Counted from the stretch's first letter, positions 1-9,064 are shown. The stretch is 64,000 bases of DNA from Thermoplasmatota archaeon (GCA_041659985.1 JBAZXE010000002.1:4714-68713); one strand, 5' to 3'. Notes: generated by a model from the letters alone, not told the origin. Numbers and translations: made by a program.

Positions 1-3000
1 CCTCAGGCAGTTGCGGCATCGCTGGCTGGACTGGATCGATGTCCTGGCCCTGCGGGATGCCCATGCCGCGGCCGCGTCGGCGCCGACGCCTGCGGCGACG
101 GCCCCCGCCTTGTCCATCTTGGCCGGGGTCAACCGCACCCGAGGGGAGCATCGATGGCGCGTCCTCCAGGTCGTCTTCGTCGCCGACGACGGCGCCGTCC
201 TGGAAGGATTGGGGTTGGCGCGGCTGCGCCGGCTCATCGCGAGGATGCGGTTGGCGAGGTCCGCCCTGCGTTGGACCCTGGCCGCGCTGCGGCGCGGGGC
301 CGCGCCCATCCTGGCGTTGCGGCGGCCCGCGGCGGTCGTTGCGGCCCCGGTCGTCGCGCCGGCCGCCACGCCGGTCGTCCCAGCGGCCGCCCTGGCGCCC
401 GCCGTCATGGCGCGAGCCGGCGAAGCGGTTGACCGGCGGCGCCGGGTAGTGCAAGCGAATCTTGCCCAACGTAGACAAGAGGTCGTTGAAGGCGGAGTTG
501 TCGTGCAGCGTGCGTTCGTCGCCGACGAGGATGAAGTTGCGGCGGGCGCGGGTGACGGCGACGTTGAGGCGGCGCTCATCCTCCAAGAAGCCGAGGCGGT
601 GTTGCGGGTTGGAGCGCACCGTCGAGTACAGCACGACATCCCATTCGCGGCCCTGCGCGCCGTCCACCGTGGAGACTTCCATGTCGGGCAGGCGGCGCCG
701 GATGGCCTCGCGCTGCGCCTGGTACGGGGTCAGCACGGCCATCGTCCAGCCACGCTCACGGCACGACGGCGAAATCTTCTGCACGAGGTCAGCGACGCAT
801 TCGACCTCGAAGTCGTTGGAGATGGAGCCGTTGCGGGCGCGGTCGTTCTCGCGTCCCGTGACGTGCTGGAACGCGGCGGCGGGCAAGTCGGCCAAGCCTT
901 CCTGGGCGGCGGCCGCCGGGTCGGTTTGGATGCGGCCCTCGTAGTAGCGCCCGTTGCTGAAGGCGACGATGGGCTCGCGCATGCGGAACTGCGTCTCCAA
1001 CATGCGCGTCCGCTCGCGACCAGTCCGTTCCTCGATGCGCTCGAAGAGGGTGACGTCGAGGCCGGCCTCCTTGGCATCCATCGACACCACCGTCGGGGGA
1101 AGCTGCTTGGGGTCGCCGGCAAGGACGAGGCGGCGTCCGCGCATGACGGCGGCCAGGCTGGACGGCGCAGTGGCCTGCCCGGCCTCGTCGTGGATGACGT
1201 AGTCGAAGATGAACGGCGACAACCCGCCCTTCGGGTCGATGTAGCGGAAGGCACCGTAGTTCGTCGTGGCGACAATGATGCCCTGCTGCGCAGCCCAGCG
1301 CACGAACGGCGGCGCTTCGATGGGGTCGATGCGCGCCGCCTCGGCGGCTTCATCGCGCAGGTTCACGGCGTGGCCGACGCGCACCGCCAGGGATCCGTTG
1401 CGGCGCAATCCGACGACGAGGTTGTCGACGGCGGCGTTGGAGTCGGCGGTGACCAGCACGGAATGGCCGGCGCGCGCCAAGGCCATGGCGAGGTGAACCA
1501 GGGTGTGCGTCTTGCCGGTGCCGGGCGGGCCATGGATGAGACGAACGCGACCGCCGGAGAGGACGGCGTTGATGGCCTCGCGCTGGCTTGCCGTGAGGAT
1601 GCCCCCCGTCAATTCCTGGCGCATGGATGCCGGCGGGTCCGTCTCCCCGAGGAGGCAGGCACGCAGCAGGCCATCCGGGCCGTCGTCGACGGGCGTCGTG
1701 GCGGACAGGGCGCGCTGCGCCCCCATGACCGCGGAATGGTACGCCTCGAAGACCTTGGTGTCGAAGACCAGGTTGACGGTAAGATCGCGCGGCAGGTGGT
1801 GGCGCGGCGCACCGGCCGGGAACTCGACGGTGACGCGGCGGCGCGTGATGCGCCCGACGATGCCGCGGCACAGTTCCTCGCGCCGGCCGGCCTCGACGAT
1901 GGCGACTTCTGAGCCCGGCGCGATGTTGGTGATGGGCAGGCGGCCATCCTTGGACTCGAAGGAGAGAGACTCCGCGCCGCGGTCGGCGATGAACAGGTTC
2001 GGCAGGGCGACGCCTTCGCGGCGGCGCTCCCGTTCGGGCTGGCGGGCATGCATGTCCGCGAGGAAGTCGCGTTCGTGCTCCTCCGCCAAGATGAGGGCCG
2101 AGTTCCATTCCGCCAGGACGTCGGCGGCGGCGCGGCGGTCGCCGGCGGCGATGCGGGTCTTGTCCTCGACCTTGCGGAATTCATTCTCGTCGAGCGGGCC
2201 CTTGAGCTTGTGCTTGGCGCAGTAGGCCGTGCTGGCCTCGAGCAGAGCGGAGCTGGGGAAGACGAAGCGCAGCTCCGGGTAGCGGCCCCAGGCGGTGACG
2301 AGGTCGGCGCCCTTGGCGGCGTTAGCCAAGGCGGCGAAGGCGCGGCCGCGCCAGGCGTGGCGACGCGCGTCGTACAAAGACGGATGCGGCAGGTCGGGAG
2401 CAACCGGGGTGAAGCGCGGATGCGCGATGCGCAGGAGATGGAGGGGGCCGAGTTCGGCGGCGACCAGAAGAGACGCGGCGAGACCGCCGTTGGCACGTGC
2501 GGCAGCCTGGACCCGGTCCGGAGCGATGCTTTCCTTGGCGTGCGCCGCCATGGCGGCCTCCGCGACGATGGGACTCAGGTGGTAGAGCTCCTCGGCCGGG
2601 ATGCCGCGCAGGGCCAAGGCGACACCGACGAGGGACTCGAGGTCCTCCGCCATCATGGCCTGGCCAACATCGGTGGCCAAGAGGAGGCCCGCCGCGACGC
2701 GGTCAATCTGGTTGGCGGCCATGCGCCACGCATCCGACCACGGCGGCTGCTTGCACAAGTCGACGGGGACGGGAAGAACGACGGCGTCCTCGACGAGGCC
2801 GGGGTGCTGCAGCGTCTTGAAGGCCACCGTCGCGAGGCGAAGAATCGCTTTGCCGTCCGCCGTGGGACTGGCGAGGACCCAGCCGGTCGGGGCTTGGTCG
2901 TGACGGTCCGGCAAGTCGGCGAGCTTGAGGGTGGCCGCAGCTCCTGGAACGGCCACACCATCATGGACGATGACGAGGCCCGGCGTCTCCTTCGCGCGTC

Positions 3001-3856
3001 GGATGGCCACGTCACGGGCGCGGCTGCGCACGAACGGACCCGCCTGCAATGCGGGCAACCTGGTGGGAATGTCGGTGGCTTCCCAGGGACCCTCGGGGCC
3101 GAACTCACGGTTGCCTGCTGGCTCGGGCTTGAGCATCTCCACGTGCAGCCTGTACTGGATGCGCGGCAGGATGCCAAGGTCGCGGGCGGCGTCCTCAGTG
3201 CTGCGGAACAAAACGGGGCCGAAGGCGCGGCTCCAGGGTCGCGTCGAAAGCAGGTCGATGGCGGACGGCTGCCGACTGATGCTGAAGCGATGGCGGAACT
3301 GCGATTCCATCAGGTGGGAGCCCAGGCCCGCCGTGACGCCGTCGGCGTCGAGAAGAAGGAGAAGGCCATTGCTGGCGAAGCGGCCCCAGTTGGAGAGGTC
3401 AACCGTCTCGAGCTCCTGCAAATCCGCCACGACGAGACTGCCGTCGTTGCGGGGCTCGAGAAAATGGTGGTCGATGAGCGTGCTCGGGTTCAGGCCAAAC
3501 CGGTTGGCCAGCGTGTCGCGCAGCTCTTGGGATTCACTGGGCGTGCACGCGATGAGAACGTTGGTGGTGGGACTTGCGTTGACAAGCTCCGCCATCACGG
3601 CGAAAGGAAGATCCCCGATCGGTAGCCCCAGGCTGAGGGCGACGAGTCCGGTGCGCCCGCCATCCAACCAGGCCTGGAACGATTCGCGCTGCCAGGCATA
3701 CGGCAAATCGGTGGCCCCGATGCGGCCCAACGTCCCCGATTCGCCACGCGCACGGTTCTGCGCAGCTCGGACCGTGGCGTCATCGAGCGCTTCGAGACGG
3801 CATTGAGAGCACGAAGCGCGCAGATTGCCGTGAGGACAGTAGCGGCTGACCGCCAT
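1..3856 (-). CDS. Upf1/DNA2-like SF1B helicase, multidomain (>1285 aa); C-terminus lies beyond the window edge
   Basis: Absent from the ORF track because there is no stop in the window. The minus frame is open from ATG 3856-3854 to position 1. My translation gives MAVSRYCPHGNLRASCSQC (Cys4 knuckle), LIHGPPGTGKTHTLVHLAMALARAGHSVLVTADSNAAVDNL (~1540-1420), VIHDEAGQA (~1195), RRLNVAVTRAR (~575), then an RG-rich tail. Confidence 0.9.
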   Translation of the reverse strand, partial: MAVSRYCPHGNLRASCSQCRLEALDDATVRAAQNRARGESGTLGRIGATDLPYAWQRESFQAWLDGGRTGLVALSLGLPIGDLPFAVMAELVNASPTTNVLIACTPSESQELRDTLANRFGLNPSTLIDHHFLEPRNDGSLVVADLQELETVDLSNWGRFASNGLLLLLDADGVTAGLGSHLMESQFRHRFSISRQPSAIDLLSTRPWSRAFGPVLFRSTEDAARDLGILPRIQYRLHVEMLKPEPAGNREFGPEGPWEATDIPTRLPALQAGPFVRSRARDVAIRRAKETPGLVIVHDGVAVPGAAATLKLADLPDRHDQAPTGWVLASPTADGKAILRLATVAFKTLQHPGLVEDAVVLPVPVDLCKQPPWSDAWRMAANQIDRVAAGLLLATDVGQAMMAEDLESLVGVALALRGIPAEELYHLSPIVAEAAMAAHAKESIAPDRVQAAARANGGLAASLLVAAELGPLHLLRIAHPRFTPVAPDLPHPSLYDARRHAWRGRAFAALANAAKGADLVTAWGRYPELRFVFPSSALLEASTAYCAKHKLKGPLDENEFRKVEDKTRIAAGDRRAAADVLAEWNSALILAEEHERDFLADMHARQPERERRREGVALPNLFIADRGAESLSFESKDGRLPITNIAPGSEVAIVEAGRREELCRGIVGRITRRRVTVEFPAGAPRHHLPRDLTVNLVFDTKVFEAYHSAVMGAQRALSATTPVDDGPDGLLRACLLGETDPPASMRQELTGGILTASQREAINAVLSGGRVRLIHGPPGTGKTHTLVHLAMALARAGHSVLVTADSNAAVDNLVVGLRRNGSLAVRVGHAVNLRDEAAEAARIDPIEAPPFVRWAAQQGIIVATTNYGAFRYIDPKGGLSPFIFDYVIHDEAGQATAPSSLAAVMRGRRLVLAGDPKQLPPTVVSMDAKEAGLDVTLFERIEERTGRERTRMLETQFRMREPIVAFSNGRYYEGRIQTDPAAAAQEGLADLPAAAFQHVTGRENDRARNGSISNDFEVECVADLVQKISPSCRERGWTMAVLTPYQAQREAIRRRLPDMEVSTVDGAQGREWDVVLYSTVRSNPQHRLGFLEDERRLNVAVTRARRNFILVGDERTLHDNSAFNDLLSTLGKIRLHYPAPPVNRFAGSRHDGGRQGGRWDDRRGGRRDDRGRNDRRGPPQRQDGRGPAPQRGQGPTQGGPRQPHPRDEPAQPRQPQSFQDGAVVGDEDDLEDAPSMLPSGAVDPGQDGQGGGRRRRRRRRRGRGMGIPQGQDIDPVQPAMPQLPE

Positions 3857-3983
3857 TTGGGGCTCCGGTAGGAGAATTGCGAAGGAGTCGCAGGAAAGGG
3901 GGAGCGCAAGGCGCTCGACCCAGGAATGCAAGGGAAAAGGAGAATCCAGACACGATGCGACGCAGCGGTCGCGGCAGCCTGGA

Positions 3984-3994
3984 GTGAAAAAGAG
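3984..3994 (-). terminator. oligo-T tract directly 3' of the 5S rRNA
   Basis: The minus strand reads CTCTTTTTCAC immediately after the 5S terminal helix. Archaeal RNAP terminates at T-runs. Confidence 0.4.
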
Positions 3995-3997
3995 TGG

Positions 3998-4115
3998 TGG
4001 ACAGCGATGACTTTTCCCGTCAGCTCGCGCATGACAGTACAACGGTCAACGTGGATCTGCTTAACTTCCGTGTTCGGGATGAGAACGGGTGAACCAAATC
4101 GCTATGGCCGTCCAA
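3998..4115 (-). rRNA. rrf: 5S rRNA
   Basis: The minus strand reads TGGACGGCCATAGCGATTTGGTTCACCCGTTCTCATCCCGAACACGGAAGTTAAGCAGATCC...GCGAGCTGACGGGAAAAGTCATCGCTGTCCA. The terminal helix is TGGACGGC/GCTGTCCA. Ends are +-3 nt. Confidence 0.85.
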
Positions 4116-4169
4116 CCACAAGTGTGAAGCACCGCCGTCCACGCCGCGCAAGGCGGAACGGACAGCGGC

Positions 4170-4247
4170 GCGATTGCATACGCAGCCTATTGGAAGCAGA
4201 AAACCGAAGTCGATTGAACTCGATTTCGGCATACAGTCATGTCATTG
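4170..4247 (-). other. 3' arm of the pre-23S processing helix
   Basis: 4173-4187 ATTGCATACGCAGCC is the exact reverse complement of 7172-7186 GGCTGCGTATGCAAT. Further complementary blocks (GCAGAAAGCCGAAGTC / GACTTCGGTTTTCTGC) follow. Confidence 0.75.
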
Positions 4248-7120
<2,873 letters not shown>

Positions 7121-7188
7121 TAACTGAAGTCGAACTCGATTTCAATTGACTTCGGCTTTCTGCTTAGTCCAGGCTGCGTATGCAATGT
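7121..7188 (-). other. 5' arm of the pre-23S processing helix
   Basis: Complementary to 4170-4247 (see that feature). Confidence 0.75.
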
Positions 7189-7359
7189 CAGGAATTCTGA
7201 CCGCCATTATCGGCTGCCGGGCACCCAACTGGGGCCGGTCGAATCCTGTGTCTGCCAGGATCGCCTAGGCGTTCCCACAACCAATCCGGTCGGATTGGTT
7301 GCAGATGTTTGTTTTGGCGGACACTCTTGCGAGGTCCAGGCCTTCCCCTTTCGGGGAAG

Positions 7360-7432
7360 TGGACTCGTCGGGATTTGAACCCGAGGCCCCCGCGTTGCAA
7401 ACGCGGTGCTCTACCAACTGAGCTACGAGCCC
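7360..7432 (-). tRNA. tRNA-Ala (UGC) in the 16S-23S spacer
   Basis: The minus strand reads GGGCTCGTAGCTCAGTTGGTAGAGCACCGCGTTTGCAACGCGGGGGCCTCGGGTTCAAATCCCGACGAGTCCA. The anticodon loop is TTTGCAA and the G3:U70 identity pair is present. CCA is not encoded. Confidence 0.92.
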
Positions 7433-7468
7433 GGACCGATGTCCGGATCCGCGCTGTTGGATCCGCCA

Positions 7469-7594
7469 GCACGAGACAGTCTTACTTGCAAATCCGATGA
7501 ACCTAACCGGAATCGTATAGTGCCCGGTCGGCCCGCTGGTTCCTTGGCTGTGTTGCAACCAAGGGACACTCCTGAGAGGAGTGGTACGAAATAT
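7469..7594 (-). other. 3' flank / processing-helix arm of pre-16S
   Basis: 7469-7479 GCACGAGACAG is the reverse complement of 9189-9199 CTGTCTCGTGC. The inner blocks (CCGGTCGGCCCGCTGGTTCC vs GGAATCAGCGGACCGACCAGG) are also complementary. Confidence 0.75.

Positions 7595-9064
<1,470 letters not shown>

Follow-up and report, generated by a model that had tools for sequence, protein, structure and literature searches.

This study concerns a helicase gene and the ribosomal RNA (rRNA) operon next to it in a stretch of 64,000 nucleotides (nt) from the genome of a Thermoplasmatota archaeon (G000:C2:4714-68713, here called the window). The source genome assembly is 2.35 Mb in length with 66.6% GC, is 88% complete and contains a single rRNA operon. 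This 16S-tRNA-23S-5S operon (3996-9064, detected with Rfam) was found to precede the helicase gene immediately, both being on the same strand; a first-pass annotation made from the sequence had likewise placed the gene just after the operon. The helicase is a single chain in which a predicted, catalytically dead superfamily 2 (SF2) helicase module is joined to an intact superfamily 1B (SF1B) motor. The order of parts in the protein is an N-terminal CHCC knuckle, a two-lobe SF2-like module, a helical domain, the SF1B helicase, a disordered basic tail and a CCCH knuckle. The features of the locus, all on the minus strand, are as follows.

2..3856, minus strand: window part of the helicase gene, residues 1-1285 of 1429 (open frame, translation, contig open reading frame, 45 homologs)
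3797..3844, minus strand: N-terminal zinc knuckle of CHCC type, residues 5-20 (conserved C7-x-H9-x6-C16-x2-C19)
3122..3706, minus strand: predicted pseudo-SF2 lobe 1, residues 51-245 (AlphaFold 2 (AF2) model, Foldseek, invariant motifs)
2741..3121, minus strand: predicted pseudo-SF2 lobe 2, residues 246-372 (alpha/beta unit in the model, Foldseek)
2177..2740, minus strand: predicted all-helical domain, residues 373-560 (helices 375-549 in the model)
1622..2176, minus strand: SF1B stalk helix and 1B beta-barrel, residues 561-745 (HMMER alignment to IGHMBP2, weak Pfam match, second model)
452..1621, minus strand: active SF1B motor (1A/2A), residues 746-1135 (Pfam, TIGR00376, PDB sequence search, Foldseek)
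2..451, minus strand: basic disordered tail, first 150 residues (1136-1285 of the 294-residue tail; composition, model)
3857..3995, minus strand: structured spacer from the 5S gene to the start codon (folding z-score, covarying hairpin)
3996..4115, minus strand: 5S rRNA gene, last of the operon (Rfam RF00001, 82 bits)
4235-7125, minus strand: 23S rRNA gene (Rfam)
7360-7432, minus strand: tRNA gene of the rRNA operon (Rfam)
7595-9064, minus strand: 16S rRNA gene (Rfam)

The gene had been described as a minus-strand gene without a stop in the window, hidden behind plus-strand open reading frames (ORFs), and this was borne out when frames were listed with open ends allowed: a minus-strand frame at 2..4042 (1347 amino acids (aa), without a stop within the window) was found together with the plus-strand ORFs 11..1912 and 2048..3625. 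The frame runs past the left edge of the window, and the full ORF recovered from the contig encodes 1429 aa, with 144 codons to the left of the window. It ends at G000:C2:4283, followed by the stop codon at C2:4280-4282, and is interrupted by neither a stop nor a frameshift. The start codon is the ATG at 3856 (MAVSRYCPHG...), because every homolog begins at the same Met and the upstream in-frame extension enters the 5S gene; a TTG start at 4042 was ruled out since it overlaps that gene. A check of the translation recovered all of the motifs quoted in the first-pass annotation, namely CPHG (residues 7-10), CSQC (16-19), SLGLPIGD (75-82), DADG (170-173), GPPGTGKT (776-783), TADSNAAVDN (803-812), DEAGQ (890-894), RRLNVAVTRAR (1095-1105) and a run of nine arginines, R9 (1253-1261).

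The C-terminal half of the protein is an Upf1-like SF1B helicase that is closest to IGHMBP2. The Pfam domains AAA_11 and AAA_12 were matched with 126.2 and 159 bits (cut-off 27), the domain SMUBP-2_HCS1_1B (PF21138) was matched weakly over residues 609-691 (E 0.014), and the best NCBIfam model was that of the IGHMBP2 family, TIGR00376, with 304.4 bits, below its trusted cut-off of 348.9. In a sequence search of the PDB, IGHMBP2 (4b3g) was found at E 2e-59, followed by Upf1 (7e-39), Dna2 (1.5e-38) and Sen1 (2e-33). HMMER aligned residues 639-837 to IGHMBP2 residues 75-273, which covers the 1B barrel, and residues ~565-1135 align to the whole IGHMBP2 helicase, stalk and 1B barrel included. An AlphaFold model of residues 560-1429 had a predicted local distance difference test score (pLDDT) of 73-95 in the core and showed a long helix followed by a barrel; its best Foldseek match was IGHMBP2 (4b3f, E 7.6e-41, template modelling score (TM-score) 0.71), with Dna2, Upf1, Sen1/SETX, ZNFX1, nsp13 and Aquarius as runners-up. 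Motor motifs I, Ia, II, III, V and VI are intact (GPPGTGKT 776, TADSNAAVDN 803, DEAGQ 890, LAGDPKQLPP 912, TVDGAQGRE 1063 and RRLNVAVTRAR 1095), and their residues are almost all invariant across 26 homologs. The claim of an intact Upf1-like core therefore stands.

The nearest relatives of normal size are bacterial IGHMBP2-family proteins of 620-710 aa and eukaryotic SMUBP-2, with 30-43% identity to the core. When the cores were placed in a quick maximum-likelihood tree, a step that the first-pass annotation had recommended, the family formed one clade with support of 100 and a long stem, nested among bacterial and eukaryotic IGHMBP2-family sequences. Pfam and NCBIfam found no nuclease or other DNA-repair domain, including PD-(D/E)XK, in the full protein. 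A routine DNA2/Cas4-type nuclease-helicase, which the first-pass annotation had named as the outcome that would make the gene ordinary, was accordingly rejected: there is no nuclease domain, and the N-terminal fold is SF2-like instead. A second, unrelated Upf1-like helicase gene (L002, at G000:C93:22-1700(-)) is cut by a contig end, encodes an N-terminal Cys/His cluster (CSACGQG...CSHCH) and lies far from the present family in the core tree. Matches of 620-920 aa that are 28-35% identical to the core were seen in 28 of 32 genomes of the window's GTDB family and in three of six sister-family genomes.

The core was also matched by models of anti-phage defence helicases, with 244 bits for MkoA in PADLOC and E 1e-43 to 5e-16 for PLuB_AAA, ProA and Hhe in NCBIfam, as would be seen if the gene encoded a defence helicase of the Mokosh (MkoA), Hhe, ProA or PLuB kind. 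However, these matches are confined to the shared Upf1-like core (~750-1128; 859-1119 for MkoA) and fall far under the family cut-offs, and no PLD nuclease or other defence partner is encoded nearby. Furthermore, the gene occupies a fixed locus in 30 of the 32 family genomes, whereas defence genes are typically patchy. We therefore rejected a defence role as very improbable.

Sequence searches gave no family for the N-terminal half: residues 1-615 matched no Pfam family at E <= 10, including ResIII, DEAD and Helicase_C, a 12-sequence family profile matched no chain at E <= 10 among all PDB sequences, and every NCBIfam match of the full protein lay in the core, with none in the N-terminal half. 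The helical domain (373-560) was likewise without a match in Pfam, NCBIfam or the PDB sequences. The N-terminal half was therefore identified by fold comparison alone. An AlphaFold model of this half, which the first-pass annotation had advised, was built on 36 homologs and reached a pLDDT of 77.2 and a predicted TM-score of 0.65. It contains alpha/beta units at 54-241 and 274-361, a helical domain at 375-549 and a long helix that leads into the SF1B stalk. Lobe 1 (residues 51-245) has alternating alpha/beta elements; the pLDDT of lobe 2 was 83-95 over 271-370 and 54-67 for 251-270, and that of the helical domain was mostly 76-96.

Foldseek comparison of this model with the PDB gave 121 matches at E <= 1e-3, and the top 50 listed are all SF2 helicases. 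Archaeal and TFIIH XPB came first, then Mtr4, RapA, Hel308/Hjm, Pol theta, Brr2 and HamB, with top E-values of 1e-7 to 1e-4 and a probability of 1.0, and the alignments to two-lobe SF2 helicases, which span 390-770 columns, cover lobe 2. The TM-scores to these helicases were low (0.2-0.36), and the assignment of the module is therefore to the SF2 fold; among the subtypes XPB fits best but is not secure against a generic SF2 helicase. As judged from the models, the N-terminal region carries a two-lobe SF2 helicase fold. The proposal of an SF2 N-lobe with a replaced P-loop thus holds as to the fold and the replacement and has to be widened to both lobes, and the ~500 aa that had been set down as unknown sequence resolve, in the models and the PDB search, into lobe 2, the helical domain and the SF1B stalk and 1B barrel.

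The invariant motifs of lobe 1 are a Q-like YPWQ (53-56), SLGLPxGD (75-82), NVL(V/I)AC (99-104), DADG (170-173) and SRQPS (194-198), and their linear order (YPWQ..AW, SLGLPxGD, NVLVAC, DADG, SRQPS) parallels that of SF2 motifs Q, I, Ia, II and III. The sequence YPWQ-x-EAF-x-AW precedes the strand that leads to the P-loop position. That position is occupied by S75-L-G-L-P-x-G-D82-L, which is invariant in the family and in which Asp82 replaces the Walker lysine, and the Walker B or motif II position by D170-A-D172-G in place of DExH/D. Because Walker A has become SLGLPxGD and DExH has become DADG, canonical ATP binding and hydrolysis by this module are not expected; going by these substitutions, it is predicted to be unable to bind ATP in the canonical manner and to be ATPase-dead. 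The SF2-like module ranks among the most strongly conserved regions of the protein: dozens of its residues are invariant in 36 sequences, and it is under strong purifying selection.

The knuckle that precedes the module was first described as Cys4. The CPHG and CSQC elements are present, but the pattern C7-x-H9-x6-C16-x2-C19 comprises three Cys and one His, so the knuckle is of CHCC type. It is at least 90% conserved in alignments of 26 and 36 homologs, and its confidence in the model was low (pLDDT 59-69).

The tail comprises residues 1136-1429 (294 aa, net charge +29) and runs from an R/G/D/Q/P-rich stretch through an acidic patch (1221-1240), R9-GRG (1253-1264), a Pro-rich linker and a K/A/P-rich stretch to the CCCH knuckle. 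The linker, which is encoded to the left of the window, contains the motif PRPERR(S/T)F (here PRPERRTF). The knuckle at 1404-1428 reads C1404-x4-T-x2-G-x2-C1414-x10-C1425-x2-H1428. In the second model the tail had a pLDDT of 35-45 and no secondary structure over 1146-1399, and the last residues (1400-1429) were modelled as folded with a pLDDT of 82-93. Tail length varies from 126 to 321 aa in homologs, with many indels, and composition and the arginine run are kept; the terminal knuckle is in frame in 24 of 26 aligned homologs and its pattern is at least 90% conserved. Since the knuckle, the composition and the arginine run all stay in frame despite the indels, the tail is translated. The first-pass annotation had taken it for an RG/RGG-like low-complexity tail that ends in R9. 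It is indeed basic and R/G-rich, but there are one RGG and seven RG in 305 residues (0-4 RGG in homologs); an RGG box was rejected, the conserved features being the arginine run and the K/A/P-rich stretch, and the ORF continues for 144 aa past the window to the CCCH knuckle.

The CCCH knuckle scored just under the Pfam cut-offs for zf-TRM13_CCCH (19.6 versus 20.9 bits) and DUF5763 (13.4 versus 26.3), and DUF5763 is pre-computed by Pfam on three homologs. No match to R3H (PF01424) or zf-AN1 (PF01428) was found in the tail at E <= 10. Orthologs P0010 and P0019 (L003:10001-14182) end in the K/A/P-rich stretch without the knuckle, which may reflect natural loss or a 3′ frameshift.

The same motif (C..T..G..C...G...C..H) recurs in five other ORFs of the genome:

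G000:C1:2839-3924, minus strand: ORF with a CCCH knuckle
G000:C13:10256-11080, plus strand: ORF with a CCCH knuckle
G000:C23:2-1849, plus strand: ORF with a CCCH knuckle
G000:C67:4839-6389, plus strand: ORF with a CCCH knuckle
G000:C67:2772-3638, minus strand: ORF with a CCCH knuckle

Four of these five share the extension H(K/F)G(Y/H)QP..(A/S)(K/Q)RIEG..W...D..(T/S)D..S...ADT(R/K)..V..A(K/R)DT. In one, a Glu/Arg-rich coil connects the knuckle to a fused AP_endonuc_2 TIM barrel. Two appear to be anchored in the membrane, and one, which is open at the contig start, is K/A/E-rich, at least 616 aa long and histone H1-like. This recurrence suggests that the knuckle is a tethering module shared across proteins of this genome.

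A search of 5.8 billion sequences with the first 600 residues returned 45 homologs of 886-1445 aa, the shorter ones being partial, with 56-93% identity; those that are labelled derive mostly from Thermoplasmata/Thermoplasmatota metagenome-assembled genomes. A phmmer search of 1.84 billion representatives with the N-terminal half gave one full-length cluster and fragments, all of the same family. The N-terminal module is present in 30 of the 32 genomes of the window's GTDB family (10 of 11 genera). It is a single match in 28 of the 30 carriers, and the two doubles are fragmented assemblies (65% and 79% complete). The two family genomes that lack the module also lack a 5S gene, so these absences are assembly gaps, and the gene is probably universal in the family, in which it is vertically inherited. 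Truncated natural variants were considered for G143 and G151 and rejected, as the partial matches are contig ends. Among the 197 genomes searched, the module was not found in the six genomes of two sister families or in the rest of the class.

The sister-family genome G156 nevertheless encodes a divergent ortholog, P0053 (1160 aa, G156:C27:8078-11560). It has the same CHCC knuckle as FCEHGNLPYSCPKC (BLASTP E 4e-4) and the "SLGL" dead P-loop (hhalign probability 90.6%, E 1.3e-6 over residues 4-126), and its core is 38% identical and sister to the family in the core tree. It has neither the basic tail nor the C-terminal knuckle. A search of the same 5.8 billion sequences with its N-terminal 680 residues found no other protein. 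Because P0053 shares the knuckle, the dead P-loop and the core, the fusion of dead and live helicases predates the family, and the tail and the position next to rRNA are family-specific.

The helicase start lies 139 nt past the end of the 5S gene in the window, and in every locus with enough sequence the two are separated by 89-185 nt on the same strand. This adjacency was seen in the window, L003-L008 and nine further genomes of the same genus, in part in L009, and at the orthologs P0019, P0033, P0035 and P0040, which are 61-72% identical overall; the contig of P0043 starts inside the 5S 3′ end. In sister families different genes follow the 5S gene. The conserved position might simply be inherited gene order, with the protein acting as a general nucleic-acid helicase in repair, replication or RNA turnover. 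The adjacency is confined to genomes of a single GTDB family, synteny often extends to the downstream CarS-like gene, and P0053 lacks both the rRNA neighbour and the tail, as such a reading would have it. However, the 5S-helicase junction persists even in family members whose proteins share 57-61% identity, while the genes on either side change (three genes inserted before CarS in L005 and L008, CarS absent in L009, other genes upstream of the operon in L007), and the spacer has conserved, covarying hairpins and no promoter-like box. We therefore regard inherited order as an unlikely explanation.

The spacer can form one hairpin with the arms CCAGGCUGC...CUGGA and a second, GAGCGC-CUU-GCGCUC; GGUCGAGC is a hairpin of this 5S-helicase spacer. 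Compared with dinucleotide shuffles, the folding z-score was -2.4 to -3.7 in the window and averaged -2.8 over 13 loci (the window, L003, L005, L006, L008, L009, L012-L017 and L019). In hairpin 2 (GAGCNN-loop-NNGCUC) the fifth pair occurs in four different Watson-Crick forms among six sequences, as counted by a script, the 3′ arms having been misplaced in the MAFFT alignment. In some relatives the 5S gene is immediately followed by additional long GC hairpins. Rfam gave no family for the spacer, with one chance match to sR28 (E 0.67). A GGAG lies 7 nt before the ATG in the window, and GGAG or GAG is conserved 6-9 nt before the ATG in relatives, matching the anti-Shine-Dalgarno sequence CCUCC at the 16S 3′ end.

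The promoter box of this genome, as seen upstream of tRNA genes and in three repeats of the rRNA promoter, is CAAATAGGG or TTATGAGGG followed ~16 nt on by GTCGGCC. A matrix was built by hand from 20 instances of the box and scored 1.5 in the window spacer and no more than 6.0 in 10 of 11 spacers; for reference, random 140-nt windows had a median of 3.3 and a 95th percentile of 7.1, and true instances mostly scored 7-11. With a matrix made by hand, these scores speak modestly against an ordinary promoter in the spacer. Given the lack of a promoter-like box, the Shine-Dalgarno motif and the structure in the spacer, transcription through the spacer from the rRNA promoters is favoured. The promoter-like copies upstream of 16S are:

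window ~9414, minus strand: promoter-like box
window ~9570, minus strand: promoter-like box
window ~9717, minus strand: promoter-like box

Upstream of ~20 tRNA genes the box takes the forms CAAATAGGG, TTATGAGGG or TTAAGAAGG, with (A/T)GTCGGCC ~16 nt on.

We can only infer the function of the dead-plus-live helicase. Our leading proposal, held tentatively, is that it is a housekeeping motor that remodels RNA or ribonucleoprotein and is expressed together with rRNA, namely a ribosome-biogenesis or RNA-surveillance helicase. A housekeeping character is indicated by the presence of the module in 30 of 32 family genomes, mostly as a single match. Human IGHMBP2 associates with ribosomes and tRNA and ends in R3H and an AN1 zinc finger. 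By homology with IGHMBP2 and Upf1, the SF1B core would move 5′ to 3′ on single-stranded RNA or DNA with ATP. The dead SF2 module may, like the inactive Brr2 cassette and RecC, serve as a fixed clamp or scaffold that binds nucleic acid or protein. The enzyme could be tethered to a polyanionic substrate by its basic tail and zinc knuckles. The helicase mRNA would come largely from read-through of the rRNA operon, so that the supply of enzyme would track rRNA synthesis, and the likeliest substrate would be rRNA that is nascent or still in precursor form, or else ribosomes or pre-ribosomal particles.

A number of points weigh against this proposal. Co-transcription is argued from the lack of a match to a hand-built promoter matrix and from a Shine-Dalgarno motif, and a gene order shared within a single family may be frozen with no bearing on function; P0053, the ortholog from the sister family, has no rRNA neighbour. 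The low TM-scores of the N-terminal model bear on the identity of the module. IGHMBP2-family enzymes unwind DNA as well as RNA, and the dead module is matched best in fold by XPB, which translocates on DNA. The presence of the CCCH knuckle on an AP-endonuclease-type TIM barrel in the same genome hints at DNA binding.

Some of these points would suit the main rival reading, a DNA-directed enzyme that acts at the rDNA in the manner of Sen1/senataxin, where it would remove R-loops, end transcription of the very heavily transcribed rRNA operon or settle conflicts of transcription with replication; the dead XPB-like module would hold on to the duplex, and the tail and knuckle would anchor the protein on chromatin. 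Structurally, the core is closely related to Sen1/SETX and Dna2, the knuckle is found also on K/A-rich histone-H1-like proteins of the genome, and the helicase gene sits at the point where rRNA transcription must end. There is a T5 run right after the 5S gene in the window and no conserved oligo-T terminator in relatives, so that factor-dependent termination is conceivable. However, the core is clearly nearer to IGHMBP2 than to Sen1 (E 2e-59 versus 2e-33), Pfam found no nuclease or other DNA-repair domain, and the best family match of the knuckle is the zinc finger of a tRNA methyltransferase. We consider a DNA-directed role somewhat unlikely.

A further and doubtful reading is that the rRNA operon truly ends with the helicase gene as its last cistron and that the product of this gene acts on the very transcript that encodes it, as a termination or 3′-processing and release factor that limits its own supply. 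If the factor were scarce, read-through of the structured spacer would increase and more helicase mRNA would be made, comparable to the autoregulation of Rho or Nrd1.

Archaeal Upf1-like helicases have been listed in a genome survey (PMC5349461). Our full-text literature searches found no functional study of such a helicase and nothing on an architecture of dead SF2 plus SF1B, on archaeal IGHMBP2 with ribosomes or on DUF5763. In databases the homologs have generic names, "AAA domain-containing protein" or "ATP-dependent RNA/DNA helicase IGHMBP2". The motor family is known, and the fusion and its genomic setting are undescribed in the literature searched.

A core gene that is physically tied to the only rRNA operon, and that encodes an unusual single chain with dead SF2 and live SF1B parts, offers a clear handle for study. 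If it is co-transcribed, this would be, to our knowledge, an unusual case of an archaeal rRNA operon that includes a protein gene, and a lineage-specific factor of ribosome biogenesis or termination would be indicated. The dead module appears to be a helicase fold kept under strong selection after loss of its ATP site, and the tail, which is basic and disordered and carries an arginine run and a zinc knuckle, gives an archaeal protein features like those of eukaryotic RNA-binding proteins.

To the left of the window (G000:C2:1-4280) we noted the following ORFs, which were named from reading the sequences only:

C2:3096-3872, plus strand: convergent CarS-like (CDP-archaeol synthase) ORF
C2:2679-3092, plus strand: likely PIN/VapC toxin ORF
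C2:2376-2675, plus strand: small upstream partner of the likely toxin
C2:1547-2359, plus strand: Cas4/PD-(D/E)XK-like ORF

In relatives the corresponding position is occupied by CarS, Fic and PDDEXK_1/Cas4 genes. ARAGORN made several odd calls elsewhere in the genome (one tRNA-SeC, one tRNA of undetermined type, and two tRNAs, for Gly and Cys, that are over-long at 94-95 nt), which may be intron-containing tRNAs or false positives:

G000:C31:14341-14437, plus strand: odd tRNA call
G000:C74:8640-8738, minus strand: odd tRNA call
G000:C4:9093-9186, minus strand: odd tRNA call
G000:C5:26569-26663, minus strand: odd tRNA call

Among known systems, the C-terminal pattern C-x4-T-x2-G-x2-C-x10-C-x2-H is that of DUF5763 and zf-TRM13_CCCH, with scores just under the cut-offs; we know of no function for DUF5763. 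With IGHMBP2/Smubp-2/yeast Hcs1 (PDB 4b3f, 4b3g) the whole helicase aligns, including the 1B barrel and stalk, and eukaryotic IGHMBP2 likewise carries nucleic-acid-binding additions and a zinc finger after the motor. In contrast, the present protein falls below the trusted cut-off of TIGR00376, is 30-43% identical to ordinary members and sits on a long stem; it has a disordered basic tail and a CCCH knuckle instead of R3H or AN1, and a 560-aa N-terminal extension with the dead SF2 module that IGHMBP2 lacks. The predicted order of two RecA-like lobes is the same as in XPB/ResIII SF2 helicases (archaeal XPB 6p4w, TFIIH XPB 6nmi), Mtr4 and Hel308, and the XPB-like lead-in to the P-loop position, "YPWQ-x-EAF-x-AW ... 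G-LVAL", is kept, whereas the module differs from XPB/ResIII in having no sequence-profile match, a dead Walker A and DExH, and low TM-scores. Brr2 with its inactive C-terminal cassette, RecBCD with RecC and AddAB with AddB also place one motor beside a conserved non-catalytic helicase fold, which serves there as a scaffold or strand guide. Those systems consist of two modules of the same superfamily or of separate subunits, whereas here a putatively dead SF2 module and a live SF1B motor are joined in one chain.

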